Origin: a virus | Length of the DNA: 64,000 nucleotides | IMG/VR virus record: IMGVR_UViG_3300045988_020586 | Strand: one strand, 5' to 3' | Shown here: piece after piece, positions 1 to 42,772 of the stretch | How the letters are laid out: each line of letters opens with the position of its first letter | How positions within the stretch are numbered: the first letter of the stretch is position 1 | Position numbers and translations under genes: made by a program | The notes under the pieces: generated by a model | What the model was told of the DNA's origin: nothing | Seen by the model: the letters and a program-made list of their open reading frames with translations, nothing else | Database searches by the model: none

Positions 1-2
1 AA

Positions 3-893
3 GATCGAGCTAATAATACAAAGCTTTCTGCTGCATAGAGAAAATAGGGAAGAGATCATGCTGCATGGTGGAATAATGCCATTAAGTAGGCTGAAGTTAA
101 TCCTAATTCTCTTATGAAGAATGGTCTTGTACAGATTGATGAATATGGACAATATTAGCCATCTAGAAGACTTTTGAACGCAGATGGTTACGCAAGCTAT
201 ACAAATGTTGGAACATTCAATGATCCTAAGAAACTTGCTTAGGCTGCTGATAAACAGTATAGTGGATACATGTACAAGCCAACTGGTGGCTCTGCTGAAC
301 ATAAGGTGCTTTTAAATAAGTTTGCAGGAACAGAAAAGCAATAGCAATTTGAACTAATGCAGAATAAACACCTTGCTGTAAATTTCAAAGACTCTAACTT
401 AAGATATTCTCCGATTAGAAGAATAAATGTTACAGGCAACAAGAGACTTAGATATGCAACAACAATGCGTAAGTTTGATAGATGGCTTAAGAGTGGATCT
501 GCTGGTAGAGGGGCACTTGTAAACGAGGATCTTAATGCCGGATGGATACCAGGTAAACATAAGTAGTTCGATATAGCTGGACATGTTACAATTACTGGTA
601 AACAATTCAGTGAGTTCTGCGTATCAATCGGAGCTACTTCTAATAATAATAAAGCAAGGATAGCATCAGAACTTGGTCTTGATGCATTTGATGCAGCATC
701 TAAGCCTGTAACAAAGAAAGAAAAAGTTGGATCTGCTACATATTACTAGATACCTATGACTAGGACAATCCAGAACAACGGCGGGTTTAAAATTGGTGAA
801 TTCAACGATGATATAAACAAGGCAAAGTTTGGACAAAGTGCCGCATTTAAGATGGCTAATGATGCACAAAATTCTTCATTAATGATAAATTAA
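3..893 (+). CDS. 3' part (296 codons) of a large virion/ejection-module protein; open only if TAG is sense
   Basis: Frame 3 read codon by codon from nt 3 to TAA 891-893: 8 in-frame TAG, no TAA/TGA. Text is protein-like. Track ORF 357-566 is one fragment of it. Confidence 0.7.
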
Positions 894-902
894 TAAAATA
901 TT

Positions 903-3900
903 ATGGCAAATAAAAATAAAAAGACGTTTACATACAACTAGGCGTATAGTAGAGGAGCTTAGATAGCGTAGGATTTACAGCGTAGTATAGCACAAAGAAG
1001 TGCTGACTACGCCGCTCCTTATGTTGAGGGGAGTATGGGCGCCTATACAGATGTCAGCGATTTTAACAATATGACATTCCCTGCGTATACTACGCTGGAT
1101 AAACAGGGTAAAGCTGTTGTAGACACAGAAGAAGACAATAGTGGTTCTCTTGGTGATTTCCTTTTAGGAGATTCTTGGGACTTAAGTAAGATGAAAGAGA
1201 GATGGGATAAATTCTCTTTCAAGGATATGTATAGGCTTACATTCGAAAAGGGGTATGGAGCCTATGTAGACTCTAAAGAAAAAGAACTTGATAATGTTAC
1301 TTTTCAATAGAGTTCTTTAAAAGTAGCTTAGGACTACAATAATCTTCTAAAACAAAGAGAAGACCTTATAAATCAATATAAAGCCTTTAAGAGTCATGGA
1401 TACGCCTCAAAAGAATAGACTAGACAATTATAGGATGCTATTATAAAGGTAGATGATCAAGTTAAGAAATACCAGGATTTCTTTAAATAGCATAAGAACG
1501 ACGATGTATTTTTAGACTTGTTCTACGACACAAATAAAGCTGGAGCTAGCGATTATTTAGCTGCTCTTAAAGATAATACGTTAACTACTCATTAGTAGTT
1601 TAATACTAATGGTATTATTGGTACTATAAACAATGCATTAAAATACACAGCTGGTACATTGTCTGAAGGCCTTGAGAATATAGCACTTACTACATAGAAT
1701 GCTATAGGTAAGGTTCTTCCTTAGGCAATTGGTGGAGATAAAAATGGAACATTTATTAAACGCGCCATAAAGAATGGTACTAGTAATTACGATAATTTAT
1801 TTGAAGGATATTCAACAAAAAATGGATCGCAATTATTGCAGACAAAGATAAATGCCTTAAAAACTGATCTTGACAGAGAACAGAACAAGAAGGAGATTTC
1901 GTTAAGATCAGCCATAAATCAATATAAAAATGGTAACTGGCTATTTGATCCTAAGAAAATTAATCCGGAATTTAGAGACCTTTAGAATCAGAATAGAGGC
2001 GGTTTAATTGGTTCTATTATCGACCCTACGCAATGGGGTTATTCAATACCAGAGATGGGTACATCATACAGTGATGCTGCAAGCTTTGCAGGAATGATAG
2101 CAACTAATGCTGGTGGTGCATTAGCTACAAAAGCAGCTGTTAAATTTCTTACTAGAAAGATTCCTGGATTAGGTGCTGTGTTAACTGCTGAAGATATGGC
2201 AAAAGCTTTTAATTCTGCAGAAAATGCAGAGTAGGTTGCTAATGCATTAAGTAGAGTAGAATTGGCTAAAAATGTAATAGGTGGTTCTACTGCTGCAGCT
2301 GGAATGTATTGGACAAAACAAATGCGCTAGTCGGAGACTAATGGCGAAGCTATAAATGCTTTAGCACAAAGAGTTTTGGATTCTTCATATAAAACAGATG
2401 TAGATTTTAACAAGGTATTTAATGCTGTCGATTAGTATTCTAAGCGTATAGGTGTAGATTCAAAAGACCTTGATTAGCTTGAAAAAGTAAAGCTCGCATT
2501 AGCTTACAACATACCTACAGGTGATGCTAACTTCGATAAGATTAAAGTAGACTCTAGAAAGGGTTTGGCTAAACTTATAAACGATAACAACGCAATGGCG
2601 TTCGAGGATTATTTACAAGCTTTACCTTTTATGGATTATACGAGAGGAGTGATATCTAAGGCTGCTAACAACGTGTTTTCTAGAGCTCCAAAGATGTACA
2701 TATAGGATTAGGTATTAGATAAGGCTACAAAAGCTGCTGCTACCGGAGTTGTAGATAATGCTATAGATAGAGTAGCTATGAGTAAATTTAGCAATATAGG
2801 CGATAGACTTAAATTTGTTCATGGTTCAAAATATCTTGCAAAGAAATTTGAAAGAGCATTCCCTCTTGCTACATCAGAGGCACTTGAAGAAGGTAGACAG
2901 TAGTTACTTACATCTAGATTTGAAAGAGGAGAATATGATAACTACTCAACAGGTGAGTCTTCTTTTTATTTGCCAAGTGTATTTGATAACTAGTTCTTAA
3001 ACGCAGATGCTGCAGCAGCTTATCTTGGAATATCATCTGGAGATCCAGATAACGGCGACTCAGAGTTAAGAAGGTCAATGGAAATAGGAGCTATGACAGG
3101 ATTGCTGTTTAGAATTCCTCATAATGTTAAAAACCTATTAACTCCATACAGAGAAGATAGTACTAGCCCTTTTAGCTCAAGCGATAAGTATAGTTTAAGA
3201 AATACTATAGCATAGCTTAGAAACGATAATGTTATTCGTAGTATAGCTGCTAATAATTATCAACTTGCACAAGATAATGATCATGTAGGAATATTCTTTG
3301 ACGCATTTAGTAGAGCCGGTGTAAATAAAGATAGATTACAGACAGCTCTTGATGATATGAAAAAGTATAAAGGGTCTTTACTACAAGATGGTTCAGATAG
3401 TTATATAGAGAATGACAAAGAGCTTCTTAATGCTGCGTGGTTTGTATATAACAATAAGAACCTTGAATAGTCTATGAAAGATCTAAACATTTCTAGAAAT
3501 AGCGAGGATCATAAACAGCTCGTACAAGCAGCTACTAGAGTCATGATAGATTCTAACAACGCAGCAAAAGATTCCGAGAAAGCTAGAAACAACATTGATT
3601 CTATAATAAATAAGACTGTACAGGATTACGAAAATGCTACATAGGAGAACAATCCGGCATTGTTTAATATTATCAATAAAATAAAGCAGGACTACCAGAA
3701 GTTTAATGAATCTATAAACGCTAGAAGAAATCAATTCAAGAACTCTGAAGAAGGAAAGAAAGCTGGGCAAGAGTGGATCGATAAGAATGAAACTTATTAT
3801 GAAGATTATGCACAAAGAACACCTTTGGATAAGGCTATCGAAAACGCAATGAATGAACGTGATAAGTTCAAGGTTGATCCAGAGAATGAATATATATAGT

Positions 3901-6900
3901 CTAGACTTGAATCAATATTCAGCTATAGAGAGTATAAGGCAGCTCAGAAGTTATCTAAAGATCTGAAGGATTAGAAAAGAAGGCTCTAGTTGATATCTAA
4001 TGAAACTGGAACAGATATTAATACCGATAAGCTTACTGGAATGATTGATTATCTTGATAAGCTTATAGAAAACAGAAGAAGTAAAGTAGAGAACTCTAAG
4101 GAGATACTTGCATACAATGAGAAGGTTGACTTATTAAACGCTTCTATAAGCGATAAAAAGAAGTAGTATAAGAAGATAACTTATGATTCTATCTTTAAGG
4201 ATTATTAGAATTTTGATAACCAGGATGAAATAGATAAAGCTTATTAGGCGTTTCTTATAAACGATGCTTTATACAACGTGCTCAAACCAATGTCTGTAGC
4301 GTTTACTACTGGACAAGTTGACCCTAGATCTGTATATTTTTCTAGAAGAGAATAGAACTGGAGCGAATTATCTGATGAACAAAAATCCGAATTCACTAAA
4401 AAAGTATAGGGTTTATATCAAGAGCAAGGCAAACAAGCTCCAACTGAAGCGTAGATAAGAGCTGCATACTTAAACGAACAAAACAAGAAGAGAAAATTCA
4501 TAAAAGAGTTATCTAAAAAATACGCAGAATTAAGAGATAAGATTGAAGGCAATGATGATATATCTAATATGAGTATGGATGATATCGCTCGTCTTACTGA
4601 TATGGAAAGAGAGGCAGCTAGAGATCTTATTAGCTCAGTTCTTGCCGACAAAAAGAATCGTATGCGTATAGCTCGTAGAGAATGGAATCAAGAAAGACCA
4701 CTTACACCAGATGATGTTTAGCAAGCTGAAGAAGGTACCGCCGATGAAGAAGTGACTCAGAGAATCAAAGATCTTGCTGGTGAGCCTAAGAGTCCAGATG
4801 TCGAGAAAGAAGCTGAAGATATGAATGTTCAGCCAATATCTTAGGATAAGTCTGTGCTTGATACATCTGAGCTTGATGCAGCTATGGATAATTCCCAGAA
4901 AGGTTCTACAGAAAACGAAAGAAATCTCGAAGAGGCTTTGGGTATGAGTCCTGCTGAAGATAAATAGCAGCAGAAACTTAGAGAGAAGCAGCAGAAATAG
5001 AAGGTTAAAGATAAAGAATAGTCTGATTCTACTAATTTTACAGATGAGAAAGATGATAATGATAGCAACGAATTACCACCTGTACCAGACAATGTAACAA
5101 TTAATGGCGATGGAACTGTAACTGTAAAGCCAGAAAAGTCTCAAGAAGCTTAGCAAAATAGCACAGATACTGGTGTTTAGGATAATACTGAAAAATAGCC
5201 TGAACAATAGCAGGTACAAGAAGGTGAAGAGCCAGAAGATGGAGATAATGATAATTCTCCAGATTTGACTCCAGATAAGAACACTGCTGATACAGGTCTT
5301 AATATTGAATAGATTTAGGATGATCAGGACTTTCCTGACGACAATCCAGAGGATGATAACAACGATGGCATAGATCAGATTCCTTAGAAAGAAGGCAAGA
5401 CAGCGTAGGTTTTGAATCCTAGTGATATTGATGTTGAAGATACTTTAAATACAGAAAGCCCTTTAGAACACGAAGAGCCAGAAGTGTTACCTAAGAAGTA
5501 CGATGATAACGGAACTTTAAATATAGAAGATCTTCCAGAAAAGTTAGATGTAGATATATAGAGTGAGTCTGATACTCTTAGTGATATGGATAATCAAACT
5601 GAGTCAACTGATACATCTGGAGCATATGACGATAGAAAACCTAAGCCATGGGCTGTGCAGGAAGCAGAAGACATAGAAAGAAGATATGCTGATCATACAT
5701 TCTTCTATAGACCTGATGCGGAAGAACCTATGAAGATAAAGGTTAATGGTAAAGATGTGAAGTTGCCAGAAGGGTGCACTATTGGCACCGGTGCAGAACT
5801 TGCACAGAAACTTACTTAGAAAGGCTGGTTTGAAAAAGCTGACAAGTTCTATGTTGTGTCATAGATGTAGAAATACTAGGAAGGAAATATTGGTGACGAA
5901 AGAGATGTGTTCACAGTATCTTTAGCCATAAGAGATGGTAATAAAATATACTTCTCTACACTTAGGGCGTTAGGATAGTATCATGATAACTACAGAAAAA
6001 CAGACGTTGATCTTTCATACGAGCTCGCTAATAAACTTAAATTTATAGGCGTCGATATGGATGCCTACAAGGTCAATCTGTTTGAGACTGCTAAAAATTA
6101 TTACTTACTTCATAATAATGTTGATCAATCTCTTCTAGAAAACGATGATAAACTGAATAAGGAAGTAATAGATTGGTATAACAACCTACATGAAAGTGAT
6201 CCAGAAAACGCCGGTTAGATACGTGCATATATAGACGATACTGCTAGAAATAAGTCCGCTCTTCCAGGCAAGGTTCCTTTGACAAATAATTAGGTTACAC
6301 AGCAAATATAGAGACTTAGAGATAATAGAAACGCCATAATTGAAGCATATTGTACATTTAAGGATGGTAAGTATATAATACCATAGACTATTAGAACTGA
6401 TGTAAAGCCACAAGAATCAAGTATAAGTAACGGTAAAATATAGACTAGGCCAAAACTTGAAAATAATCTTGTTGATTTTAGACCTCTTACAGAGAAAGAT
6501 TTAAATCTTGATATTCCTTCTGATCCAGAAGAACTTACAATGAAGCTTGAGAATGGCGCTATAACACTTGGTTATGGTACTGGAGTAATGGCTGATGAAG
6601 GTAACAGATTCCTTATTCGTAACCTCTACAATCCTTCTGGAGATACAATAGACGGTAAAGGCTATTCTGGTAAATTGTACTTTACAATAACCGGTCCTAG
6701 TGGATATGTTGTTCCTATAATGCTTAGAGAAGAAAGATTCAACTAGGTTTAGGGCAAAGATGGTAAGATGCAGTTTATTGATCCTGTTAATATGTAGTTA
6801 GCTATAGATCCAAATACAGGAAAGATAAATAGAAACACCCCATTATCTATGGCTGAGCTTATACTGTATATGGTTACCGGTAAGATTAATCCAGAAGAAT

Positions 6901-9900
6901 TTGAAGGAAACCAGGGACTTATTGCAGATTTACTTGCGTTAAGTGTTCATACTACGTTTGCTACTAAAGCTGACAAAAAACATCCGTATTTAGCTTCTAA
7001 GCAGTTCTATTTCGACGATGAGAAGAACTAGCTTGTGTTAACTCAACCAGGCACTAGATAGGATTTAAGATTGTCTATGGATTAGTTGTTTGGTGATTAG
7101 TCTGAGAAGACAAGAAGGTCTACTATTAGATACATAGCAAACAATTTACACTGGAACACAGATAAAGAAGACATGGTTGAACATTTTAATAAATCTATGC
7201 CTAAATTATCTGCGTTCTTAAGATAGTATTTTGAAGATAATCCAAAAGCTAAGTCATATAAATTCTTTGGTCTTAATCAGCTCGAATTTAAGAGAGACGA
7301 GTTGTTCTCTACAAACAAGAATGGTTAGCTTAATCCTAAAAATGTATCACTTGCTGCATGGATGATAAATAATGGCAAACTTCTTACAGACTTAGCTCCA
7401 CAGCATTTCTACGCTCCATTTATATACTCTGACGGAGTACAGGCTTCAACAAAAAAGAAGGCTGTAGCAAAGGTAAAGAGAGAAAGTAAAAAGTAGGAGT
7501 ATCCTAGTGCAATTGAGGCAGAGGCAAATATAGCGGCAAAGAGATTTACTGACGATGCTATAAGCAGAATGCAGAGTAGATATAAAAATAATTCATAGAA
7601 GCAGAAGGTTACTAAAGATGATTTCTTAGTTCTGTCTGATGATGCTAGAAAAGATGTGCTAAACAACTATAGAAAACGTGGTATATATGATATAGTTGTA
7701 ATCGATGTACTTAAAGAGGATGTAGAAGGTAAATCATTAGACGAAGTTAAACATATTATTGCATAGCATGTATAGAAATATGTAGACTACGCTAATTCTT
7801 AGGAAGGTTAGAAGTTTGATGTAAAAGATCTTACTTTCGTATCTGATACTATGCTGAAGAATATTACGAGCAAAGGCTATGTTCCTATACTTAATGTCGG
7901 TGTAAATGGGAAGCTTCATATAAATGCATAGGATCCATTGTCTATACTTCGCAACAACAAGGTTAGGTAGGATGGATATACTGGAGTATTCTCTAGATTC
8001 AAATCAAAAGGAAAATTTGACGAGAAAGCTGCTAGAAAGTGGCTTAGCGAAAAGCTTGGATTAGATGATACTAAAGTAATCGTTCTTGACGGAGTTCTTA
8101 AAAGCTGCGAAAATAGTAAAGTATATGGTATAACAAGTCTTGCGGCAGATTATATAGATAGATAGATTAATGGTGTTATTACTTTATCAAATGAGGCTGG
8201 ATATGGTATTCATTATCATGAGGCATGGCACTACGTTAACTTATTGTTAAACAATAAAGCTCAGAGGCTTAGATTATATGATGCTTACATTAAATCACAC
8301 AACTTAAAGAATATCACATTTGGAGAAGTTGAAGAGTTAATGGCTGAAGACTTCCGTAGATATGCAGAAATGCGAAACGGAAAGGGAATCGTTAACACGA
8401 TCAAGAGATTGTATAATAATATACTTGATTTTGTAAATGTATCAAGAAAGAAAGATATTGTACGCAATGTATTTAACGCAATTAATAATGGACAGTACTT
8501 CGACGTACATATGGATAAAGACTCTATAAAAGAGTTTGAGAATAGATATCCAAACGGCGTGACTTCAGCAGACTACTATGTGCCTACTGTAGATCAATCT
8601 ACTCTTGATAAGCTTGAAGGAATAAAGGATTATCATACATTCTATCAGTGTGGTGTAGCCTTGGCACAGAAGTTGTTAAGCGATTACGGATTTAAAACTC
8701 CAAACGATATTAATAGTAAAAAAGTATCTAAATTCAATGATCTTATTGAAGACTTAAAGAATAATAATGAGTTTGAATCAGATCCGTTAAAGCAATCTAT
8801 AATAAACGATATTTGTAATAATCCTAAGGCTTTTGAAGGTATTGTAGCCAATGTGTTTGCTTAGTATGGAATAAAGGCTAATGTAAAGAAATTCTCCTAG
8901 ATGGATGAGACTAATGATCTTACGAATAAAGATTCTATAAATGATGACGATTAGTCTAGAGATATTGGCGATAGAGCAGATAATACTTGGGACGTAATGT
9001 AGTTATCTATAAGCAAAAAAGACAACGTAGCATTTAGAGCTAAGCTTTTCTTAAGCCTTATAGAAAAAGGTAAGTTTGTTCTTGATCCAGAAACAGGAGA
9101 GCGTGAGTACGAGACATAGTTTAATGATATTATTAACGATGTTCCTTTGTATTGGAGCTATAGTGAAGCATGGAGCTCTATATTGAAGAATTTATGGATG
9201 TGCGAATCTTATGATAACATAGATCCGAATACTGGCGTATTTGCAGCCAATTCAATTAGAGGCAAGGTTAAATAGCTCGCTGATAGAAAGATGGCTTTAT
9301 TTGTTTCTCTTAACGATAAGCTTGAAGAAGTAGAAGGCGATATAGAGCTTGAGAACTAGATACTTGCTACAGTAAAGAGTTCTTATAACCAGGTAGCATA
9401 GATTTGGCTTAATGATCCAGTAGAGAAATCTATGGGCATTATGGATTTGCCAGAAGATATGGTATCATCTGTAGTAGAAGTACCTACTGACGAGAAGCGT
9501 ACGTGGGAGATAAGAAATGATAACACACTCAAGGCAAAGAGAAACTAGCCACGTTTATGGAGCTAGGAATTTGCTTCTTCTAATGTAATTATTTCTAAAG
9601 ATGGATAGACTATTATAAATCCAGAGTATGTAGACACACTTGTAAAGATGCGCCAGGATGCTATAGATCTTTCCAAAGTTCTCAATGAGCCTACTATCCA
9701 AGATTTATCTTCGGCTTACGATGAAGCTGCTACATAGGTTGTTAAAATTCTTAACTACATTGGTATACCATTCGATAGAGAAACACTTGATGCTTATACA
9801 TATTAGGTAAAGGATGAATCTAATGGTAAAAATCCTATGTTAGCATAGCTTTAGGCCTTACAAATGATGCTTGGCGGCTCCATGTAGAAGAAAAATGGAT

Positions 9901-12900
9901 CAAAAAACAACTATAAATGGAAGACTAATAAGTAGACTGGCTCTTTGTCATACTTTATTGATTTGCTTGATAAATATAAAGGTCAACCTTATCTTGAAAC
10001 TAAACAGTCAAAGAGAAATAAGGATGTTGTTACAGTTGATCAGCTGTTTGTTGGATACGGTTTAAAGACACCTATATCAAAGATGGCTGAGGTTTATGCG
10101 CAGACTAACCCATCTTCTACCGATGTAAGTATTAAAGGACCAGATGGAGCTACATTATACCCTATAAGTGAAAATAATGAAGCTTCTGATAAACTTCGTC
10201 ATATAAATGATAATAAGGATGGAGTTGTTGAATAGATGATGCTATCACCATATGCTAAGCATAGTTCTATTCTTAATATAGCTAGAAATGATCAGCTTGG
10301 AGATAGGCCTGGAGATAATACAAATAAGTTTAAACTTAATGCATTTGTTGGAATAAAAGATACCAGAGAGAATACTGGAGACGATTACTTTGGAATAACA
10401 CCTCTTGCAGACTATATTTCAAAGATGGTTATGAAACATAATAACATGCTTGTATTCCCTACAATGGCTGATAAAAAGACATGGTATTCTATATCTTACG
10501 ATCCTCTTACAAAGGATGCCGAAGGCAAGATATTGTCTGACGGTTTATGTGTACATGACCTTATCACATATAACCATACAGATGAAGCTGGTAAATGGAA
10601 TGCCTTAAGATTCTCCGAAGGTACTCTTAATAGATTTGTTGGATATTTCAACGATGAGCTTGAATCGCTTAAACAATACTACGATAGAAAGAATATAGCA
10701 TACTTTGTAAATAATCCTGGAAGAGCAAGAGATAATTTCCACGGTAAAATTAAAGATGGTAGAATGGATATGGCCGGAAACGGCGGAATGTTCAGATACT
10801 TCTATGACGCTATAAAGATAAAGGATGATAACGGTAAGGAGATGAATCTTAACCAATATCTTGAATTCCTTTACAATAAACAGTAGGCTATAGAAAAGAA
10901 TCCTGTTAAGAACGGTGGTCTTGGTACCATAAGAGAAGGAGCTAACGAACTTGATGGATTTGAGCTTGTAAGAAGATACATAAATGAGCTTAGTGATTAG
11001 GTTAAATCAGATCCATCTATGCTTAAAGACGGTATAAATCATATGCTTATATCTAGGGTCAGTGATGAGTTCTAGACTATATCTGACGATGGTTCTACAA
11101 AGGTTGTTTACTTTGATGGTAAAACATATCTTCCTAGAGCCATACCTGTGCAGATACTTGATTACTATCATAATAGATTCGGAAAGAGTGGAAGAGTATT
11201 ATCTGACTACTATGAGGACGAAGCTGGTAATGTTGCTGATTGTACATTGTCTGCAATAGCCAATAATGTAGCAAACGAAATGATATCCACAATAGAGCTT
11301 GAGAAAGTATTTACTGGAGACCCTGCTTATTACAAATGGCAGTACAACAGAAAGATTCTTGACAAATTTACTGTAGATGGTAGTACTTAGGAAGTAAGAA
11401 GATTGACTGCTAAGGATGCTGATAAGATTAAACGTTTAGGAGCTATACTTTCTCCAGGACAGAATCTTAGAACAGAATATTCTGATAGAGAGATACAAGA
11501 ATTTAAAGACCCTATAAGCGGCAAAGAAGAGCTTAGAGGAAGTAAATATACAGTTCTCAATATAAACGATATTGTAGCTAGATCTAAGTTTATAAATGAC
11601 GTTTAGACTCAGTTTGGAAGACAGATACTTGCAGATGAGATTAGATCTAATCCAGAATGGTTTGACAAGATTGTTGAAAAAGAGTCTAAAAAGTCAGGTG
11701 AAAAACTTACAAGAGAAGGATAGATTACTAAGATGTATCTTAAAGATAATTATTACAAATCTATTCTTGATAAGGCTCCAAAGAGCGTAAAAGAAGCTGT
11801 TGATATTCGATCTAAACAACAGATGTCTCCATACGAAGAAATTACTGTATCAGATGCGTAGGTTTGTATCAGACCAGCCTTGTATAGAAAGATCCGTATG
11901 AACCTTGGTAACTGGACTACAGATCCAGATGAATCTGGATATTCTGACGAGGAGGCTTATAAGATACTTGAAACTGATGGTTCTTGGATGAATGATCCGG
12001 AGAAAGCTAGAAAGGTTAGCAAACTTTAGCTATTCCCTCTTAAGATGACTTACTTCAGTAATAGTCCTACAGAACTTGGTCCTGGTATATTCCAGAATCT
12101 TCCTGTGTATAATAAGATGGCTATTTTCCCTATGTTCAAGTATGCCACATAGAGTACATCTGGTAGATAGCTTTATGATCGCATGAACAAAGAGGGTAAT
12201 GAGATAGATATGACAGCATTTGAATCTGCTGTTAAAGTTGGTGACAACCAGAATAGATACTCTCCATATAATAAAGATGTAAAGATTATAGATGGAGATA
12301 TAACAACTATGGATGATGCTATCAACAATGAGTCTGACTAGTATATTGATAGATCTACAGGAGAAGTTAAAGCTAATACTACTGAAGGAAGTAAGCTTTC
12401 TGTACAGGTACAGGATCTTAATGGAATTCGTATGCAGCTCAATACCGATGCTCATGAGGCTACCGAAAGATCTATTGGTACACAGATGTTTAAACTTGCA
12501 TTCTCTAACTTGTTTGATAATCTTAAGTATGGTTTAAATAAAGCTGACTGGCAAGGTTAGAGTAAACCTTCTAGATATGGTAGAGAAATAAAAGCCGATC
12601 TTATGGCTTGTATTAATGCTATGACTATGCTTGGTATTAACAAAGTATAGGATAGATTCTATTCTTAGAATGATGAAGGTAGGTTTACTCATATAAACTA
12701 GAGATAGGTAAGAAACCTTGTAGAAACTATCGTTAAGAACAATGGACTTGGTGTATCTGCTGAAGAGATTATTCACAATGGCGGTGTTGTAGCATCACTT
12801 ATGTCTAGAAAGGTATTTGAACAAAGCGTATTCTCTGCAGTTAGTAAAGATGTAATAGATATACAAACCAAAGGAGGCTCTGCTGTCCAGCAATCTATAT

Positions 12901-15900
12901 TTGGCTTTACAGGATTTGATGATAATAGTGTTAGATCTTACGAAGACGGCGATTATCATTTGCTTAACGGCGGTAGAGAGATTAGATGGAATACATAGAA
13001 TGGTAGTATGGAAGTTATGCTTTCTATCAACTTCTTTAGACCAGTTGTTCCTCAAGAGTATCAGAATACGTATGGTATGATGAGACAGTGGCTTATCGAC
13101 CATGATGTTATTAATGGTAAAAAGACTGATGGCTCTCAATCTCATCCTAAACCTTTTGGTATTGGCTATCGTATTCCTACGCAGGGTATGTCGTCTATGT
13201 TCGCTATGACAGTAGCAGATGTGCTTCCTACACAATCTGGTGACACAATAGTAGTACCTAGAGAGTTTACCGCTTAGACTGGTTCTGACTTCGATGTCGA
13301 TAAACTGTTTATTGCTACTATGTCTTACACAAATGGTGAATTAGATACTATTACAGAAGAGTAGGAAAAATAGATATCAGATATATTCTCTAGTAAAGTA
13401 AAAGGATCTAAGCAAAATGCAGTATAGAAAGTTTTACAGCAAGCTTCTTATGGAGCTATATAGAATAGATTGCTCAATAATTACATTGACATCATATCTG
13501 ACACAAGAAACTTCTCTAATGCACGTGCTTCTATTGATACAATTACAGACGTTATTAAGTCGTAGATTCTTCCTCACTTAAAGAGCGGATTAAACGAATA
13601 TAGACCATCTATGTATGAGCTTACTCCTTCATTCCAGTCTAGACGTAAGATGGAGTTCTCTACAGGTAAAGACGGTATTGGTCCATTCGCGTTGAACGTA
13701 ACAAATATGGCTCTTACATAGTTTACTCATTTGTCTATGAGATACGGAGATAATCAATTCGGATTCCATGACCTTGACTAGGTTCTTGGAGAAGATGGAG
13801 AACGTATTTCAGACTGGTTGTCAGCTATGGTTAATGCCCATGTGGACGTTGCCAAGGACCCATATATCTTTGACCTTAATATTAACTCTGCTACATATAA
13901 TCATGTAAACTTCTTACTTAGAGCAGGAAAAGGTAAGGCTACATTCTCATTTATCGCATAGCCAATACTTAAGAAGTACGGATAGTTAATGGGTTCCGCC
14001 AAGGGTACATTTGGAAAGAACTTCAAAGCTGACGGAAAATCTTAGGAATTAAATAACCATTCTTAGATATATAGTTATCTTCTTAATGTAACTAGACAGA
14101 ATCTTGCTGATAAGCTTGATTTAAATAAATTATATAATACATATAAGAGAAAATCCGGTGGTGTATCTTATTCTCTCAATGAAGATTATGTCAAGAAAAA
14201 TAGAGATGGAATCATTAAGGCTATTAAGAATTCATTAAAGTCCGATGGCGAAAAGAACTAGGATGTTATAAACAAGTATGCTACAGATATATTTAATCTT
14301 ATCATAAATAATGATAAAGATATACAGTGGAAAGATGCCATGAACTTTTAGAAGGGTGTTTATGCTATAGAACATGCCGATTCTACATTTGGCTTGTATT
14401 ACCAAATGCTGTCATTAAGATCATTTGGCAAGATAAAGACATATGCAGACGAGCTTGCAGACCTTGTAAAGGTGTCTAAGATCGACACAAAGAAGTTTGG
14501 TAATAACATTTCTTCACATATCAACTTTAAGAATACATACGAGCAGTTTAAGTATGGAGATCATAAGGTTGAGTGGTATATAAATGATGGCAATAAATAC
14601 GAGTAGAAGATAGACGAAAATACTGGAGAGGAATTGACTCCTACTGAGACAACAGCTGCTCTTATGAGATACTTCCATAATTTGTTCTTGGATTCTAAAT
14701 TCTACAATGCCACAGAGCTTGTATAGAGGATATTGTAGAACCAAACATTTTCAGCTACTCCTTTGTATGCTAATTTGCTTAGAACAGCTCTCGCTAGCTT
14801 AAATGCTGATGAATAGTTCTAGGGGTATACGAAATGGAGATTTGACAAGGATGGTAATTATACTGGAACTCCTTATGACGGATACAAATAGGTAATGAAA
14901 GATGATGTCGTGCAAGCTATTGGTTCATCAATAGAAAGTATGTTAAGATTCTAGGCATTACTTGATTTTGCTCCAAAGATTGAGGCGACAGATGATTACA
15001 CTGGTCCTATAGACTTTACGTTTGGTGGAGATAGATAGGAAATAGAAAGGAATTACAAAAGAATTCTGTATGGAGATAAAGAAGGAGATGAATATGATAG
15101 AAATACAATATTCTAGAACCTTGCTAATCTTATGTAGAGCATAATAGATGATCCGGATTCAGATGATGCTCAAGGCCTTGTAGATTAGGATGGTGTTATC
15201 AGTAACGAATTATTTGAATATCTTAGACCATAGACTGGAATAAAAGGTTCAAGCGTAGGAAGAATGATGCTTTCGAAGACTTAGATGAATGTTGGAGTAG
15301 AACAGAAATAGAGGCTTATGTCTGCATTCGATTAGCTGTTGACTCATCCGTCTGAAAGAGTTAGAAGAGTAGCTAGGGATTTAGCTATATATGCATACTA
15401 TTCTACATACGATACTAATAGCGCTTATTCTTTCTCTGATATAATTCCACCTAAATATAGACATCAATATGATAGAGCTCTTAGCTTAGCTCTTGATTCT
15501 AGAACCAGAAACGGATATCAGCATAAGTCTTTAGGAGACGCTTAGGCTATGGCTAACGATATTCTTGATGTAATAGCAAGAAACCTTTATAAGAATGATG
15601 ACGTTGTTCCTATGTATTTCGAAGATAAAAAAGATATTATTAAATACGAAGGAACTATTCTTAAAGTTGATGGTATAAAGAAGAAGGTTAATGCTCTTCT
15701 TATTTCTAATTCTAGAAGTATACCTAAATCTAGGTACTTTAAGATTAAACGAGGAGATCAGTATGTTGTTTATAGATATGCAGGTACAATCGAAGGTTTG
15801 AATAAAGAAAATAAAGCATTAGAAACTAAGAGAGTTTATATGATTGTTCCTAAGTTTGGATTATAGATAAAAGGAACATAGTTGTACGAATTTATGTAGG

Positions 15901-17024
15901 GTTCTGAAGGTATTTCTATATTCGACGAAAACAAATTACCTAGTACATTTAAGGCGGATAAACTTTTAGATTACGCTGAACAATATGCGAAGGATCTTAC
16001 AGAGTCTTTGTCTAAAGATTAGAAGAATAGAAAATCTAAGCCAAAAGACGAATCTAAACAAGTTGTTATGTACAGATTTTCTTCAACAATAAATCCTATG
16101 AAGATAAACGGTTCGTATTACGAAGTTAACCCTAACGATAATAAGCTTAATAACAAGGTTACAAACGAAGATGGTTCTGTAGAATTTGTATCAGCTATTA
16201 ATCCTATTAATAAGATTGAGCAGGACATAAAAAGTTCTGGAGTTGATATAAATATCAACAATGCTAATTTACAGCAGATTGTTGAATAGATACAATCAAG
16301 ACAGAGTATCGGAATATATAGTTTTATACATTTCAATGGAGATATATCCAAGTTTGAACCATCTAAAAAGCAGGTAAGCGATTATATCACATAGAAAGAA
16401 AGTGAATATGAAGACACCCTCGCTTCAGATTTAACTAAAGCTCAACGCAGATAGTTTATAGCAGAATACTCTAAGAAACTCAAAGATGAAGCTCCAGGCG
16501 TATTGTTGCAGAAGAATGTAAACGACAAGGTTGATTCTATTGTAAAGGATTTAATTTCATCAAATGTAACAAACTTTACAATATTATCTACCGGTGATGG
16601 TGTTATAGAGCAAGCTGGAGCACATTCAGCTATGCTTAATCAGTCTAATATAACATCTACACTTGGACCTTGTAGGGTATATATTCTCGGCAAAACTATG
16701 AGTAATCCGGAGTCTTTGGAAGCTGAAAAGTAGAAATATATACTTGATGATGTTGATGTTAAAACTGATGAACAAAAAAGTACCGAAGATGATATAAATA
16801 TGTTGTAGGATGCAGCTGACAACGCTGTTACAAATATCGAAGATATTTAGAACGCACAGTCTGCAGATGATCTGTTATCATAGATAAAGGATTAGGATAA
16901 ACAAGAGTCTGCTCCTAGTGTTGATAATCCTAACGAAACTGCTGGTAGTTTAGATGATTTATTGTCCTAGATTGGTGCTTTGTCAGAAGAGTCTAAAGAA
17001 ACAAATGATAATAAAAACTGTTAA
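903..17024 (+). CDS. Giant (5,373-codon) virion protein with a crAss-type two-barrel RNA polymerase domain; TAG read as sense
   Basis: ATG 903 to TAA 17022-17024. All 17 track ORFs from 1035 to 16503 lie in this one frame. Every codon read by eye: TAG is the only stop triplet in frame (25 in the first ~1000 codons). DFDVD at 13287-13301, flanked by ..IPTQGMSSMFAMTVADVLP.. and ..SAMVNAHVDVAKDPYIF.. Confidence 0.8.
13287..13301 (+). other. DFDVD (DFDxD) putative catalytic metal-binding motif of the virion RNA polymerase domain
   Basis: Codons gac ttc gat gtc gat, about residue 4129 of the giant ORF. DFDxD is the signature reported for crAss-like virion RNAPs such as Cellulophaga phage phi14:2 gp66. 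Confidence 0.6.
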
Positions 17025-17026
17025 TT

Positions 17027-20000
17027 ATGTTTTGTCCTTATTATAAAAATAAAGATGTTTTTGATGGCTTTAACAGTATAATATAGGCACTTGGTGGTAA
17101 ACCAATGACAGAAGAGGAATTTAGGTCCGCAGAGCTGAGAAATCAGCGACGCGGGCTTGATTACTCTGCTATGGAAGCAGCCTATAAAGCCTATCATGCT
17201 AATAATGGTAATCTTATGGATTTAGCTCCAAATGGCTAGCCATCATTAGTATTTCAACAGCTATTGTAGATATACAATGGAGATATAAATAAAGCCATAA
17301 AAGCTAAAACTAATTTATATTCAAAGACGTTTAGAAAGCACTTTGGAGATTGGCTTAGCGATAGTATCAGTAAGGATAAAGTTGATATTAACGGAGAGCC
17401 TATACTTCCTTTTGGGGAGTCATTAGAAAAAGCAAAAGCTTCTGCTTCACTTAGGTCAAAGATTGGTATACAAAACAAATTTAAGAGAGCTAATGTATAT
17501 TCTACTTTTGGAGAATCTATATCAAGTGCTTTATAGAGTGGTAAAGAATAGTCTAGTAAAGATATTGTTTCCAGATTCTCATAGTTGAGATTATTCTCTC
17601 CGTAGAACGAAAAGCTTGCAGAAGTTTTATAGCGTCATGAAATACCTACTGTTTTCAAAAATCATGAAGATGGTAGCCTAATGAAGGCTTATACAATAAA
17701 TGGTAAAAGCGCAATATCTATTGATCCATAGTTAGCTAACAATGTATCTAACCAGTATTTGGCTGATACATATCTACATGAGATAATACATACTATAACA
17801 ACAGATCCTATAAATGACGCAAAAACTAAGGAAGATATTAAATTCAGAGACTAGAATAGGAAAGTATTTAATATATTTAGTAAGTTGTTTCCTAAGGAAT
17901 TATTTAGCAGAATGGATATGTCTGGCCTTTACTATTGTCTTGAAAACGAAAAAGAGTTTGCTTCTGAATTCGCTACAAGACAAGATGTAAGAAGCATGCT
18001 GTACCAGAGAGCTATTCTTGAAGATAAAAAGAATAACAAGGCTCCAATTCTTGCGTTAAAAAACCTTGTAAATAGCCTATCTAGATTATTAGCAAACAGT
18101 AATGTATTTAACACAAATAAAGACCAATTAAAGCTGTATTAGAATACTGCAGCGTCTTATCTATTTAATAGGCCTATTCTTAAATTTGAAGGCTTGTAGG
18201 CGTCTAAAATAATCCAGGAAGTATATAAATCTTTAGATAATTCTGTTCTATCAAACGACCAGATATAGTAGACTAGAGAAGATTTGATCAGATCAACTAA
18301 TTATGCAGAAGTTAATAATTCTATGCGAGTTGATAGAATTAATTATAACGATCTTGGACTTAATACACGAGACTCTGAAGAGATAGCTTAGAAGAGGATA
18401 GAAGAAATGTGTAGCAACATAGCCACTGCCTTATCAAAGAGACAGGCTGCTATTAAAGTATCTTAGCTTCCAGAAGAGTATAAGAGTGAGAATATAGAAA
18501 TACTTAGGTCTCAAGTTTAGTCTTTTAAAGACCGACTTGGAGGAACGTTTTATTCAATAGCTAGTCTTGTACAATAGATTGCACCATAGCTTCTTGTTGA
18601 TTCAAAAAAGATACACAAGATAAGACAAGATAATATGACTATAAGCGATGCTGAGTACATGTTCTTGACACACGATAACTTTGGTACATATTAGAAGATT
18701 TTGTCAGAGATTAATAGCGCTCTTAATTCTCCTACTGTAATAGATTTACTCATAAAAGAACTTGAAGATAAACCGCAACAGGATAGAGCCACTTCTAACG
18801 ATATACAAAGAATAATCTAGATTGTACAAAGTTCAGAAGCTGTAGCAGCAGATGCCACATCTCTTATGTCGGAGATTCTTGTCAATAACATGAAGAAAAG
18901 ATTTGCATAGATAGGTAATGATGTCCATTCTCCTACAATAGCAGATTATATTAATCACCTTAAGACTATAGGATATGATACAAGCTGGTTCTACACTACT
19001 GTAGGTTCTATGGATTCTGCAAAAGACGAAGCTTTAAGAGCAATGGCTTATCTTATAGATAAGGCTACTCATAAAGCTGATAGAGACACTCATGATAGAA
19101 TAGTAGAACTTATGTAGCTTAAAGAATAGCTCAAGTTTGGCGAAAGTGTTCTTGATCTTTATGAGGTTGATGATAATGGGTTTACTACAGGTTACTTAGT
19201 AAGAGCCTTGAATTATGGTAAATTTTTCAGAAAGAGATAGGAGTTTATGGAAAAGCTTAATCTCAAATACGGATTGGATCCATCTAATAGAGAGTAGCCA
19301 AAAGGCGATGATGGTGTAAAATGGAGTAAAGAAGTAAATGACTGGTTAAGCAAAAACTGCCATAGGAAATACAAGAAAGAATACTATGAAGCATTTGCTA
19401 ACCTTTCTGCCGATACTATGAGAGCACGCGATTCTATCTAGATATAGATTAAAGCTATAAAGTCAAGATGTAAAGATGAGTTTGGAAACTATCATTTTGA
19501 TAGACTTACAGATTCTGAATGGAATACACTTAGAGGATTATATATACAAAAGAAATAGTTGGCTTCAGACTATGATGTAAATGGAGATCTTAAGATAGAA
19601 GGTACTCCAGAATATCGTATGGCTAAAGAGCTTTAGAAACTGAACGAGACTCTCTTTAATTCTTCCGATAAAGTTAAAAAGGATACAAAGAGATGGTAGG
19701 CTGACAGAGATAAGATTATCTAGGAATGTGGTGGTCTTGAAGAAATGGCTAAAGGAGAAGATGGTAATTTCGATTTCGATAAGCTTAGAAAATGGGACTC
19801 AAGAAATAGTAAAACTAGACTTAAGGTAAATGAAGAGACAGGTAAAGCATTGCTCTGGGAAACTATTGACAATGAAGTAGAAAAGCCTGTATATGCAATA
19901 ATTGTAGACGAAGTTAGCGACCATGGAGCTAGATATGAAGAATTGTAGCAACAGAAGTATAATATACTGTCTACATACAGAGATTACAATACCGGTGATA

Positions 20001-22864
20001 TAAATCCTTCTAAATTATAGAAGTCTATACAGAATAAAATACAAGAAATAGACAAAGAGTTAGCTAAGATTAGAAAGCAAGCTGTAAGAGAGGATAAAGA
20101 TTTAAAAAAGCTTGCTAAAAATCGTGCAAAAATTTTTAGAAAATACGCTAAATCTTCATTGACTGATGTGTATAAAGAAATGCGTAGATTGGCAGTTCTT
20201 AGAGACAAGGATGAGCCAGGCTATCTTGATACATTCGAAAGAAATACAGGTAGACTCGTAGAGGACGTAGAAGGAGAAATATCATGGTAGGCTAAACCTT
20301 GGTTTAGAAAAGTAGTCGCAAAGCAGGCTTACTACGACAGATTTATGGAAGTATTGCCAGGAGATGGTTATCTTAACTCTGATGAGAACAATGATTTGCT
20401 CGATAAGGATTTCGACGAGAGTTACGGATAGGCATTTGTGCCAAAGAAGGAATTATACGACAATTCTAATTAGTATAACAAGATTGTTAAATCGAAAACC
20501 CTTAAAGCTCTTTATGATAAGACATATCAAACAATTAAAGAGTCTAACGAATTGTAGACAAATAGAAACTATGTAGACAATTATCTTCTTCCATAGATAA
20601 CTGGCTCATTCTTTAAATACCTTAAAAAGCATAGCGGCAAATGGAGAATGGCTTGGGACTTTATCAAAACTGGAAATGTAGACCCATCTTCTTCTGGAGG
20701 TGCTCTTAGAGAATATTTCAAAGATACTGTTGGTATTGGAGAGAAAGGATGGGAGCAAGATGGCACATACGGATAGTTTATTGATTAGGCGTTGTCTGAC
20801 TAGGATTAGTTTGGGGATATCATCAACTCAAAAGATCCTACGTTCGGTAGCGAAATAAGTGGAGAGCGTCCAGATGGTAGACAGCTTAATATGATACCAC
20901 AGTACTATACCAGAAGACTTAAGGATACATCATAGCTTTCGTCTGATTTAATAGGTATACTTGGAGAGTACTACAACTAGTCTTAGAAATATAAGAACAA
21001 GAAGTAGATAGAAGCTACGTGCGAATCTATGGTTGATATGATTGAGAATAGAAATCATGAAAAGGTATCAATTACTGGTAGCATAGGTAATCTTAAGAGA
21101 ACTACTAGAAATGTTACTGGAAAGTCTTCTAATACATATAAGGCTGCTAGAAAATTCTTGGATATGAACCTATATAACATACGTTCTTCAAGAATGTAGG
21201 TAAACATATTCGGCAGATAGGTTAATATGGGCAAGATAGCTCAGTTATTTAGGGCTGCTACAACACTCGTAAACCTTGGCTGTAATATAGCTGTAGCCGG
21301 AACTGGTTTTACTACTGCTATATGGGCACATGTTGTAAATTCTATAGTTGGATAGAAATATAGTTTTTCAGATGCCTGCGCTGCCACTAGATTCGTCTTA
21401 CATCATTTGGTTGAAAATGGCATGGGCGCCAAATATATAGAAGATCGCAATTCTAAAGACCTATTGATGCTTATAATGGAGCATTTTAATATAGCAAGTC
21501 AGCTTGAGAGAAAAATGAAGGATTCGAATAGAAATAAGTTCATAAATGCCATAACTCATAACTGGGCATTCGGCGGTCTTACTATGTTTGACTTTTGTGC
21601 TAAGGCTCCTATAGCTATTTCTACTATAATGTCTTACAGATATTACAATGGAGAATTTACAACCAAGGATGACGTTATAATGAATAATATCCTTAATCCA
21701 GAAGAAGCTAAAAAGCGGATTAAAGAATGGAAAAAAGGAAAGAGTTTGCTGTCTATTATGAAAGAATAGAATGGTAAGCTTACTGTAGATAAACAGTATT
21801 ACAAATAGTATAAACAGATAGAAGACGTACTCCATTCTAGAATTGAGAGATATGCAGAAAATGCAGATGGTATGGCTACCGAATCACAAAAAGCTGCTAT
21901 TACAACAAATGCATTAGGTGCCGCAGTTTTAGTTCATAGGCAATATTTCCCTCTTATGCTTCAAGAGAGATTCGGCGATACTGTATGGGATAATTCTACT
22001 TAGCAATTTAAAGGCGGTTCATTTAGGTCTGGATTACAATTACTCAATGTGCTGTCTAAAGGATATTCTGATGAAGTAAACCTATAGAACTTTTAGGTGA
22101 ACAGAAAGAAGTCAGTCTTAACCGGTCTTGCAACAGGTGCAGCATTAGGCTCGTTTTTACCTATTGTAGGCCCTATGGCTGGTGTTGCTATAGGTTCTGC
22201 AATTGGCGCATTATTGGGCGCTAGAGCGAAAAATTCTAGGTCTTTACAGAGATATTTGTACGACAATTCATCAGAAAATTAGGCTAGATTGTGCAGATTT
22301 AGACGTCAGCAATTAAAACGTCTTGCGACTGAAATCGCTTTATACAAACTAGTTGTTTGCCCTGCTGTTGCCTTAATATGTGCATATGCCGACTCTGATG
22401 ATGATAATAAATTAATGTAGCTACTTGCATATATTGCTGTACGTACAAAATGGGAGGTATTCACTCCTTATCGTTTTGATGATGCATTAAATAACTTTAA
22501 ATCTGTATCAGCGTAGACTGGTACTTTGGATGCTTTTTAGAGCGTTGCTAAATCCGTTCCGGAATACGCATTATATTCCATCATGCCTCGAGGATCGCTA
22601 TTGGATACTTTCCTAGGTGGCTCCTTTAACGATTATGATTCAAGTATATAGCGAGGTATTTACTCTGATTACAATATTCCATTTACAGATACTGAATGGA
22701 ATAAAGCTTCAAGAGATATATTCAAAGCAACACCATTTCATCATGCTTATGAACAAATTCTTGACTCAAAGAGTAAAAGAAGCTATTACGAAAATCAAAT
22801 CATTCAAAATAAATCTTCAGATGACCCATTATATAATTGGGCTTTGGATAAGTTTAGTAAATAA
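17027..22864 (+). CDS. 1,945-codon virion/ejection protein with HExxH zincin motif and C-terminal Gly/Ala-rich hydrophobic segment; TAG read as sense
   Basis: ATG 17027 lies 2 nt after the previous stop; tandem TAA TAA at 22862-22867. Track ORFs 17885, 19745, 21407 and 22097 share this frame. Read by eye, only TAG interrupts it. HEIIH at 17777-17791; ..LTGLATGAALGSFLPIVGPMAGVAIGSAIGALLGA.. at 22097-22240. Confidence 0.75.
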
Positions 22865-22871: not shown

Positions 22872-22910
22872 ACCCCGACTGCTCTCACGAGTGGCCGGGG
22901 TTTATTTATT
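22872..22910. terminator. Bidirectional intrinsic terminator at the convergence of the + and - modules
   Basis: Hairpin 22872-22901 (ACCCCGACTGCTC / GAGTGGCCGGGGT, loop TCAC), preceded by an A-run and followed by TTTATTTATT. Confidence 0.6.
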
Positions 22911-22912
22911 CA

Positions 22913-23302
22913 CTAATTCAAAACTTCTTGGGAATAATATCCCCAATATATTGCGTTATCAACTACATTCTGCTTTGTTAGGATATCAAATCCACCTTGT
23001 TCTATACAAGATACTTCAGCTTTCTTTGCTTTCGGTATTTCGTACAAGACTTCAAGAAGAACTTTGCTATTAGATTCTACATCGATCTTAGAGTCAAAGT
23101 AATATTCACTCTCAGATTGTTTATATATCCAATAACGCTGTGCAACAGAAATAGGATTATAAAGAAGTCGCATATACTTCTTTTCTCCTACTGTAACTAT
23201 TTCTGAAGAATAAAGAGCATTTGTAGTTAGTAATTCCCTATTTGTTATTATATAGGGAACTACAAATATAGAGTTATTTTTAAATTTCTCTTTATTAAAC
23301 AT
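22913..23302 (-). CDS. hypothetical protein (129 aa)
   Basis: Track ORF, ATG start checked. Ends TAG 22913-22915, immediately followed by in-frame TGA 22910-22912. Confidence 0.6.
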   Translation of the reverse strand: MFNKEKFKNNSIFVVPYIITNRELLTTNALYSSEIVTVGEKKYMRLLYNPISVAQRYWIYKQSESEYYFDSKIDVESNSKVLLEVLYEIPKAKKAEVSCIEQGGFDILTKQNVVDNAIYWGYYSQEVLN

Positions 23303-23441
23303 CCAAAATTGCTGCTTCTAATTCTTCACCTGTAGCACAATTCTTAAAATCGTCTACATTAAATGTATTTTCAAGATCCATAACATTGAACGTATTTTCC
23401 AACATTTCAATATTCAAAGTTTCATTTTCCATTTTACTCAT
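23295..23441 (-). CDS. small acidic hypothetical protein (48 aa)
   Basis: ATG overlaps the upstream TGA (ATGA) and the TAA overlaps the downstream ATG. Fills the gap between two track ORFs. Below the track length cutoff. Confidence 0.4.
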   Translation of the reverse strand: MSKMENETLNIEMLENTFNVMDLENTFNVDDFKNCATGEELEAAILDV

Positions 23442-33558: not shown

Positions 33559-33767
33559 GACCCCGTCGGGTCTGCATGACATACACGATATGTGCGGACG
33601 CTGATTGATGTTTTACGTCTTTCGGTACCTTTCTCGCTGCCACATATCAGTACCACATGTTGTCCCTAGTGAGGGTTTGCACCTCGCAGTCATATCCTTT
33701 CGGAGCACACTAGGGTGACCAGTGGTGTCCTGGTCTATTCCATTAACAGTAGGGAAGTTCGTATAAT

Positions 33768-42214: not shown

Positions 42215-42772
42215 TTAAACTTTTAAGTTATTTTTAATTTTCCTACGAGTGCGGCTTAATGCTGCTTTTATAGTGCCTGTAGGAGTTTTTAGCACTTTGC
42301 TAATTTCGTCAACTGATAGATCCTCTACGTAAAACAAATTAAAAATCTTTTGTGTCTTTTTAGGGAGCTTTTCAAACTCCTTTAAAAGAAATTCGTGTTC
42401 AAGAAGATTGACAAGATCTTCTTCTTCCGAAGAACTAGTTAATTCTACGGGTAGTCGGCCCATATCTTCTCCTAATTCCATAGATTTCTCCTTTATCTTT
42501 CGTAAATAATCTATAGCCGTTCTATTAGCTATAATTCTCAGCCATCCGCCAAAAGACGAATAATCTGTGAATGTCGAGAGTTTCTGGTGAACCTTAAGAA
42601 ATACAACATTTGTAAGATCTTTAGCTTCATCCATATCATTCACGTAATGAAAGAGTACGTTGTCAACGAACTCCTTATAACGGTTAAACAATTTATTAAA
42701 CGCAAGCTCATTTCCCTTCTGAGCTTCTTTTATGGTCTCAATCTCAGATTGAGTGATACGCTGATACTCCAT
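42215..42772 (-). CDS. ECF-type sigma-70 family RNA polymerase sigma factor
   Basis: Region 2-like ..VVFLKVHQKLSTFTDYSSFGGWLRIIANRTAIDYLRK.. and region 4-like ..KIFNLFYVEDLSVDEISKVLKTPTGTIKAALSRTRRKI.. Confidence 0.75.
   Translation of the reverse strand: MEYQRITQSEIETIKEAQKGNELAFNKLFNRYKEFVDNVLFHYVNDMDEAKDLTNVVFLKVHQKLSTFTDYSSFGGWLRIIANRTAIDYLRKIKEKSMELGEDMGRLPVELTSSSEEEDLVNLLEHEFLLKEFEKLPKKTQKIFNLFYVEDLSVDEISKVLKTPTGTIKAALSRTRRKIKNNLKV

Follow-up and report, generated by a model that had tools for sequence, protein, structure and literature searches.

TAG-to-glutamine (Gln) recoding that is mostly limited to late genes has been published for crAss-like phages of groups beta, delta and zeta (Yutin et al. 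2021, PMC7886860), and liquid chromatography-tandem mass spectrometry (LC-MS/MS) confirmed the TAG-to-Gln assignment in two crAss-like phages (Peters et al. 2022, PMC9523058). From certain phages with evident recoding, suppressor tRNAs have been reported as missing, which was blamed on incomplete genomes or on divergent tRNAs (PMC7886860; bioRxiv 10.1101/2021.08.26.457843; PMC12386605). Group I introns with HNH homing endonucleases are abundant in protein-coding genes of delta and zeta crAss-like phages (PMC7886860). Here we describe the IMG/VR record IMGVR_UViG_3300045988_020586, a stretch of 64,000 nucleotides (nt) analysed as a whole and hereafter called the window, in which TAG encodes Gln, judging from codon comparison, and the gene for the tRNA(CUA) that would decode it is split within the anticodon by a group I-like insert. 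The nearest known system for the code is the code-15 late-gene recoding of delta-group/Suoliviridae crAss-like phages (PMC7886860; Borges et al., bioRxiv 10.1101/2021.08.26.457843; PMC9523058). The recoding itself adds nothing new to this well-documented, RefSeq-annotated lineage; what is new at this locus is the intron-split suppressor, and no description of an intron-containing phage suppressor tRNA was found in the searchable literature.

The window makes up about two thirds of the ~100-kb genome of a Suoliviridae (delta-group) crAss-like phage. Positions 7-23849 showed 91.7% nucleotide identity over 99% coverage to the RefSeq genome NC_055895.1 (CrAssphage cr7_1; Crassvirales; Suoliviridae; Oafivirinae; Burzaovirus coli), and the replication block 88.6% identity. 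With 84-99% coverage, 89-92% nucleotide identity to cr7_1 and a syntenic gene order, the sequence belongs to the Crassvirales. An independent assembly, a Logan contig from SRR3993063 (L092), was 100% identical to window positions 50769-64000, a range that takes in the suppressor-tRNA locus as well as the rightward open reading frames (ORFs) with TAG; positions 1-22864 lie outside this contig. The Logan contig extended the right end of the window by 7.6 kb, into the terminase gene. IMG/VR contained no exact match to a 38-mer taken at the window's left end, loci retrieved by way of the MCP and gp22 genes did not include the closest contigs, and the portion of the genome examined leaves out a structural module of ~31 kb between the terminase and that left end. 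Relatives were surveyed for decoders at 80 terminase-anchored loci from IMG/VR, with 238 loci considered overall.

Three rightward genes occupy the left end of the window, separated by gaps of 9 nt and 2 nt: the 3' part of a virion-module gene (3-893, + strand; 296 codons), a giant ORF (903-17024, +; 5373 codons) and an ORF of 1945 codons (17027-22864, +). These are homologues of gp31 (YP_010112777; 94% amino-acid identity over the 296 codons), gp32 and gp33 (95% amino-acid identity) of cr7_1, respectively. They carry 8, 153 (2.85 per 100 codons) and 60 in-frame TAG codons, amounting to 221 TAG and no TAA or TGA in 7614 codons. A sequence-only reading of this DNA had given the same gaps and frame counts, together with 25 TAG in the first 1000 codons of the giant ORF and 22 between nt 3900 and 5586; all of these were reproduced, and it had overlooked no in-frame TAA or TGA ahead of the terminal stop. 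Its counts further to the right were equally accurate: three TAG in a small ORF at 57658-57888 (+), two in an ORF of 478 codons at 61995-63431 (+; predicted as a gene of 478 aa on the Logan contig) and one in the part inside the window of a 423-codon ORF that begins at 63438 (63438-64000, +). Its remark that the genes all end in TAA holds for the three left-end genes and for 61995-63431; if meant to include 57658-57888, it fails there, as that ORF ends in TGA.

The absence of TAA and TGA from the giant ORF is not a matter of chance. Base composition predicts ~318 of these codons in the coding frame, where none was observed (P(0) ~5e-139), so chance is excluded; the other two frames contain 213 and 669. 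TAG, in turn, is similarly dense in all three frames (153/118/147). When ORFs were re-called with TAG as a sense codon, as the sequence-only reading had suggested, the coverage of the window by ORFs of at least 100 aa rose from 48.5% under code 11 to 85.4%; the controls, with TGA or TAA as sense, gave 62% and 77%. One could still suppose that TAG is a genuine stop, in which case the region would be a patchwork of short genes, a module turned pseudogene or an artefact of assembly, given that code 11 yields only short ORFs here and that the giant ORF, when scanned against PHROGs, matched no family. Sequence statistics have already refuted this explanation, and we give it practically no credence: against the hundreds of TAA and TGA codons in other frames there are none in 5373 + 1945 + 296 codons, an amino-acid identity of 93-95% to cr7_1 runs uninterrupted across the TAG positions, and so does a homology of the giant ORF to an RNA polymerase described below. 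An artefact is further contradicted by the independent assembly of SRR3993063 over the part of the window that it covers. RefSeq already annotates the homologous coding sequences of cr7_1, of 16,332 nt and 5,838 nt, across their TAG codons, and the gene caller applied to the Logan contig already reads through the TAGs of this phage. TAG recoding as such is thus already known for this lineage.

The identity of the amino acid was examined by comparing codons, which avoids circularity with database translations. The 221 window TAG codons align in cr7_1 with TAG (172), CAG (25), CAA (9) and others (15); in the opposite direction, TAG of cr7_1 is replaced in the window by CAG 29 times and by CAA twice. 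CAG therefore swaps with TAG (29) more often than with its own synonym CAA (7), and no exchange of TAG with TAA or TGA was seen between the two genomes. The more distant loci L196 and L197 (35-41% identity, and themselves less recoded) most often have Q opposite a window TAG (23/178, a 3.8-fold enrichment), and the substitution profile of TAG against them resembles that of the CAA/CAG codons and is unlike the profiles of Y, W, L, S, K or E. In the terminase gene of the same phage, available from the Logan contig, five of eight TAG sites are CAA, CAG or TAG throughout the 80 relatives, with the exception of a single GAG and a single CGT. The Gln content of the late proteins, if TAG is included in it, is 5.5%, compared with 4.3-4.6% in less recoded homologues, and TAG provides 221 of the 420 Gln codons (~53%) of the three left-end virion ORFs.

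Based on this codon comparison, TAG is glutamine in this phage, in agreement with the expectation of the sequence-only reading that the phage follows its crAss-like relatives. The same reading had held that the inserted amino acid cannot be read from DNA; this does not stand, as TAG exchanges with CAG and CAA in the manner of a synonymous codon, and Gln codons align with TAG positions in homologues. Another amino acid (e.g. Tyr, Lys, Glu, Trp, Ser, Leu or pyrrolysine) is very improbable. ARAGORN does label CUA tRNAs as 'Pyl' by default, and a minority of TAG positions lie opposite K, E, Y or N codons. However, cr7_1 has a different codon at 49 of the window TAG positions, and at 34 of these it is CAG or CAA, including the nine two-step TAG/CAA exchanges, while TAT, TAC, TGG, TTG and TCG never exchange with TAG between the two genomes, AAG does so once and GAG three times, against 29 for CAG. 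The near-invariance of the five terminase sites and the finding of Gln by proteomics in related phages (PMC9523058) also speak for glutamine.

A decoder for these codons was not returned by the usual tools. Of the four tRNAs that ARAGORN called in the window, one was Ile-GAU, one Lys-UUU and two Met-CAU; a tRNA(CUA) was not among them and did not emerge with intron options and lowered thresholds either, and a crude pattern scan of the window for an unsplit cloverleaf with a YUCUARN loop gave only weak AT-rich matches inside coding regions. In cr7_1, a tRNA(CUA) of 72 nt, annotated as tRNA-Gln, stands directly upstream of the dUTPase gene, and in relatives from the survey of 80 terminase-anchored loci the array at this slot consists of tRNA-Met(CAU), often an odd tRNA-like element, and then tRNA(CUA). 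The syntenic slot of the window has conserved flanks with 1.4 kb between them. Alignment of the window to the tRNA arrays of relatives located both halves of a suppressor gene in this interval: a 5' exon at 59349-59383 (+; TGCCCATTCGCGTACCAGCTAGCGCACCGGGCTCT), corresponding to tRNA positions 1-35 and ending in ...CUCU with U35 of the anticodon CUA, and a 3' exon at 60370-60406 (+; AACCCCGGGGGAGTGGGGGCAGCACCTACATGGGCGA), which runs from A36 to the discriminator A73. The gene is thus not contiguous but interrupted between U35 and A36 by 986 nt. Once joined, the exons give a 72-nt RNA whose minimum free energy fold is a perfect cloverleaf (-29.3 kcal/mol) with U33, a 7-nt anticodon loop CUCUAAC and the anticodon CUA. 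The expected spliced junction joins ...GGGCUCU to AACCCCGG... or, as a longer probe, GCACCGGGCUCU to AACCCCGGGGGAG. A gene split within its anticodon in this way is missed by standard tRNA finders.

The split arrangement is not peculiar to the window and recurs in at least 12 IMG/VR genomes. The exon-intron junction is common to 13 IMG/VR stretches (12 contigs), which encode 12 distinct spliced tRNAs, all with the loop CUCUAAC. In other genomes, L134 and L136 among them, the same insert at the identical site between U35 and A36 interrupts suppressors that are otherwise fully canonical (D loop AACGGUA, T loop UUCGAAU), and whose anticodon stems differ and covary. Across 15 distinct intact or spliced suppressors, 97.8% of the cloverleaf positions are paired and compensatory changes occur in 15 of the 21 pairs, which no shuffle reached. 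The survey of the 80 terminase loci found an intact CUA tRNA in 24, a split one in six and both together in none. Likewise, the window-type 3' exon was present in 28 metagenome contigs, and an intact CUA tRNA in none of the stretches examined.

The intervening sequence itself (59384-60369, +; 986 nt) has a group I-like architecture and ends in G. It contains an HNH endonuclease ORF of 300 aa without TAG (59414-60316, +; Pfam PF01844 HNH, 23.1 bits against a cut-off of 21.4), closed off by a predicted long-range helix between 59389-59395 and 60208-60214 (+). Downstream of this helix on the same strand, the proposed fold comprises a P2 hairpin (60229-60235/60247-60253), P3 (60260-60266/60327-60333, CCUUCUC with GAGAAGG), a short P4 (60274-60277/60292-60295), a GAAA-capped P6 (60297-60313), P7 (60319-60323/60356-60360, GACUA with UAGUC) and P8 (60334-60349). 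From P2 in the 3' direction the elements follow as the 5' strand of P3, AAUUG, P4, P6, the 5' strand of P7, the 3' strand of P3, P8, AUGCAA, the 3' strand of P7 and the terminal G. This predicted order, with its P3/P7 pseudoknot, is that of a group I core.

Comparative data agree with the proposed fold. All 41 of the proposed pairs form in all six distinct homologues, and double compensatory changes affect six pairs in five helices (P2, P3, P7, P8 and the ORF-closing helix), a result matched by none of 500 shuffles; when the helices were slid as a control, pairing fell to 24-50%. The splice sites (...CUCU/UUUG... and ...AAUG/AACC) place a U at the end of the exon and a G at the end of the intron, as in five of six homologues, the junction in L154 being ambiguous. 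The junction motifs resemble those of two group I introns in the window that Rfam recognises, and the presence or absence of the insert at one site across genomes fits homing. The insert is therefore very probably a structured, group I-like element that would splice itself out, short of a demonstrated member of RF00028.

The first of the two introns recognised by Rfam lies immediately downstream, in the dUTPase gene (60434-61908, +), which is split into exons at ~60434-60685 and 61615-61908. Its intron (~60686-61614) matches RF00028 at 61316-61557 with 65 bits and contains an HNH_3 ORF (60769-61596); the gene is uninterrupted in the relatives L004 and L005. A junction at 60692/61615 was rejected, as it causes a frameshift, and the motif GVIDA/DYRGE sets it at 60685/61615. 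The second, with an Rfam score of 81 bits, is located in the leftward block at 44728-45020 (-) and adjoins plus-strand ORFs at 44181-44798 and 45395-45889.

The suppressor is joined in its array by a tRNA-Met(CAU), the first member upstream of it (59125-59196, +; Rfam tRNA 57.8 bits). This tRNA combines a C1xA72 mismatch with A73, a hallmark of bacterial initiators, but its anticodon stem is without the three G-C pairs that initiators usually have there. It was considered as a replacement of the suppressor and rejected, because relatives carry the Met tRNA and the suppressor in tandem and the suppressor exons are found further downstream. A tRNA-like element with a 6-nt anticodon loop was noted at 58585-58659 (+; Rfam tRNA 37.9 bits; called by ARAGORN only at a lowered threshold), 73 of whose 75 positions are identical in cr7_1, and odd tRNAs with 6- or 8-nt anticodon loops occur in or beside the tRNA array of many relatives. 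A permuted tmRNA and a tRNA-Cys(ACA) are called in cr7_1 by both RefSeq and ARAGORN (L002, 20629-20992) and may be false positives; no equivalent was called in the window. At the same locus of IMGVR_UViG_3300045988_012220 (L004, 2890-3500) there is a suppressor-like tRNA whose anticodon loop is CCCTAAA and whose T loop is non-canonical; downstream of it come another HNH ORF, unlike that of the window, and a second copy of the 3' portion of a canonical suppressor tRNA. Homing endonucleases thus appear to have a hotspot in the suppressor gene.

Several observations weigh against an intron-split tRNA(CUA) as the working decoder. Window-type exons lack the GG of the D loop (D loop ACCAGCUA) and have the T loop GGCAGCA in place of TTCRANY, and ARAGORN rejects even the joined exon sequence, also at -ps80. 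An unsplit copy of these exons is absent from JGI metagenome contigs and from the 238 loci. Rfam RF00028 gave no match over the insert, whether in the whole window, in 58500-62000, in 59340-60415 at E<=10 or in five related loci, although the same scans do detect the two other group I introns of the window. The P1 helix with its internal guide is tentative, consisting of a 3-bp candidate found by eye in which exon UCU would pair with GGA at ~60223-60225, upstream of P2. Lastly, the ~31 kb from the terminase to the left end of the window are outside the sequence examined, and the proposal gives no account of how host RF1 is outcompeted.

Some of these observations could also be explained if TAG is a sense codon and the HNH element has destroyed the tRNA, leaving a dead remnant, with suppression supplied by another source: a tRNA that escaped detection in the unseen ~31 kb, a near-cognate host tRNA-Gln combined with weakened RF1 termination, or a co-infecting relative. 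The unusual loops and the failure of ARAGORN on the spliced product would then reflect decay, which is also possible after inactivation if window-type exons never occur unsplit, and the silence of Rfam on the insert points the same way; moreover, recoded phages without a detectable suppressor tRNA have been noted (PMC7886860; bioRxiv 10.1101/2021.08.26.457843). We nevertheless consider a dead remnant unlikely. The four stems are fully paired across variants, including a double change from C27-G43 to U27-A43, which a decaying pseudogene would not keep; the same intron sits at the identical site in fully canonical suppressors; its helices covary; and split and intact genes never occur together. 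As to other sources, the structural-module loci of relatives (the MCP and gp22 regions) contain no tRNA genes, so the unseen ~31 kb are unlikely to hide another suppressor, and it is improbable that near-cognate leakage could support one ORF of 5373 codons with 153 TAG. In these genomes, ~3% of the codons of late genes are TAG, and no other decoder is in sight. On this evidence from pairing and distribution, the split suppressor is probably functional rather than decayed.

For charging with Gln, the acceptor stem offers indirect evidence. Bacterial tRNA-Gln is characterised by U1 and a weak 1:72 pair. All 15 distinct sequences of the suppressor begin with U, and in 14 of them the pairing of position 1 with 72 is weak (U-G or U-A); the discriminator is A73 and not G73. 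By this analogy, the suppressor recalls bacterial tRNA-Gln and may be charged with glutamine.

A TAG-as-Gln phage with an intron-split tRNA(CUA) as its decoder is, in our assessment, quite probably the best explanation overall. We propose that the early genes would be translated under the standard code of the host, and that the tRNA array upstream of the dUTPase gene would then be transcribed. Removal of the intron between U35 and A36 would yield the mature 72-nt tRNA(CUA), which would receive glutamine, presumably from the host GlnRS, and would compete with host RF1 at UAG, allowing virion, tail and packaging genes to be decoded. We lean slightly towards the stronger claim that the suppressor on which the whole virion proteome depends arises only after a group I-type intron has been spliced from its anticodon. 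The intron may either parasitise an indispensable gene or also delay the code switch.

The distribution of TAG along the genome would accord with two coding regimes. The replication/early block (23438-56496, -), with exonuclease, ATPase, primase, RecA-like, helicase and DNA polymerase genes by homology to cr7_1, has no in-frame TAG in thirty larger leftward genes (6337 codons), so these read identically under either code and would be translatable by an unmodified host ribosome. TAG is a frequent glutamine codon in the virion module, in the tail and packaging genes downstream of it and in a few other genes. The sequence-only reading was right that TAG is sense in the rightward module; sense TAG codons are not confined to the rightward strand, as leftward ORFs at 55634-56104 (-; 156 codons, 6 TAG; predicted as a gene of 156 aa on the Logan contig, with a gene of the same length, gp71, in cr7_1), 47567-48064 (-; 4 TAG) and 22910-23386 (-; 3 TAG) carry it too. 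In five further leftward genes (46735-47232, 42730-43218, 33690-34430, 53701-54030 and 52244-52921), the first TAG lies near the 3' end and is followed by TAA or TGA 1-25 codons on. This looks like a stop that acts before suppression sets in, with a backup stop for afterwards, and such TAG stops may become short C-terminal extensions once suppression is on.

Some observations on neighbouring sequences and genes may be added. A RAGATH-1 hammerhead ribozyme (RF03152) was found in an intergenic region of the leftward block at 51520-51601 (-), with 71.9 bits where the gathering score is 56.3. In cr7_1 (L003), the major capsid protein gene (42679-44214) has no TAG and the portal gene (46875-49346) has 15, a sharp contrast in recoding intensity between adjacent late genes. 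Two IMG/VR terminase loci with ~80% terminase identity (L135 and L149) have a terminase gene without in-frame TAG, so that within the group even close relatives differ in code state.

Within the giant ORF, a virion RNA polymerase-like domain was identified at 12471-13982 (+; aa ~3857-4360). A phmmer comparison of the ORF with PDB 6VR4 chain A ('DNA-dependent RNA polymerase', 2194 aa) gave E = 5.5e-22 over two stretches, with TGSDFDVDK aligned to TGSDFDIDK of 6VR4, the DFDxD metal-binding, catalytic motif; this is the homology that spans TAG codons. The protein in that structure is gp66, the virion-packaged RNA polymerase of Cellulophaga phage phi14:2, and the likeness covers the aa ~3857-4360 segment with its DFDxD motif. 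In the window, by comparison with gp66, the domain is embedded in a polyprotein-sized ORF of 5373 aa with 153 TAG codons. The 'virion/ejection module' label of the sequence-only reading is reasonable in view of this domain.

If the proposal is true, the anticodon intron would explain part of the mismatch between evident TAG recoding and 'missing' suppressors in crAss-like phages, as a concrete and checkable cause that standard tools overlook. A selfish element, or possibly a regulatory step, would then sit at the single point that controls the expression of all late genes, and the timing of the code switch could be coupled to RNA splicing.

Compared with cr7_1, the window has the same genome architecture, giant read-through coding sequences, TAG as Gln, TAG-free replication block and suppressor locus adjoining the dUTPase gene. 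The tRNA(CUA) is intact in cr7_1 but split in the anticodon by the HNH-containing insert in the window, where the non-canonical D and T loops of the suppressor also lead tRNA finders to report none. Group I introns are found in the anticodon loops of bacterial tRNAs, including cyanobacterial and plastid tRNA-Leu(UAA), tRNA-fMet, and proteobacterial tRNA-Ile and tRNA-Arg. The insert in the window resembles these in its position in the anticodon loop, its exon-final U and intron-final G, and its predicted P3-P8 core with a P3/P7 pseudoknot. It differs from them in its host gene, a phage amber suppressor on which an alternative code would depend, in the 300-aa HNH ORF closed by a long-range helix, and in a core that is so reduced or so divergent that RF00028 does not match it. 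Phage group I introns in protein-coding genes are represented in the window itself by the dUTPase intron and the intron at 44728-45020, whereas the target of the element in the split suppressor is a tRNA gene.

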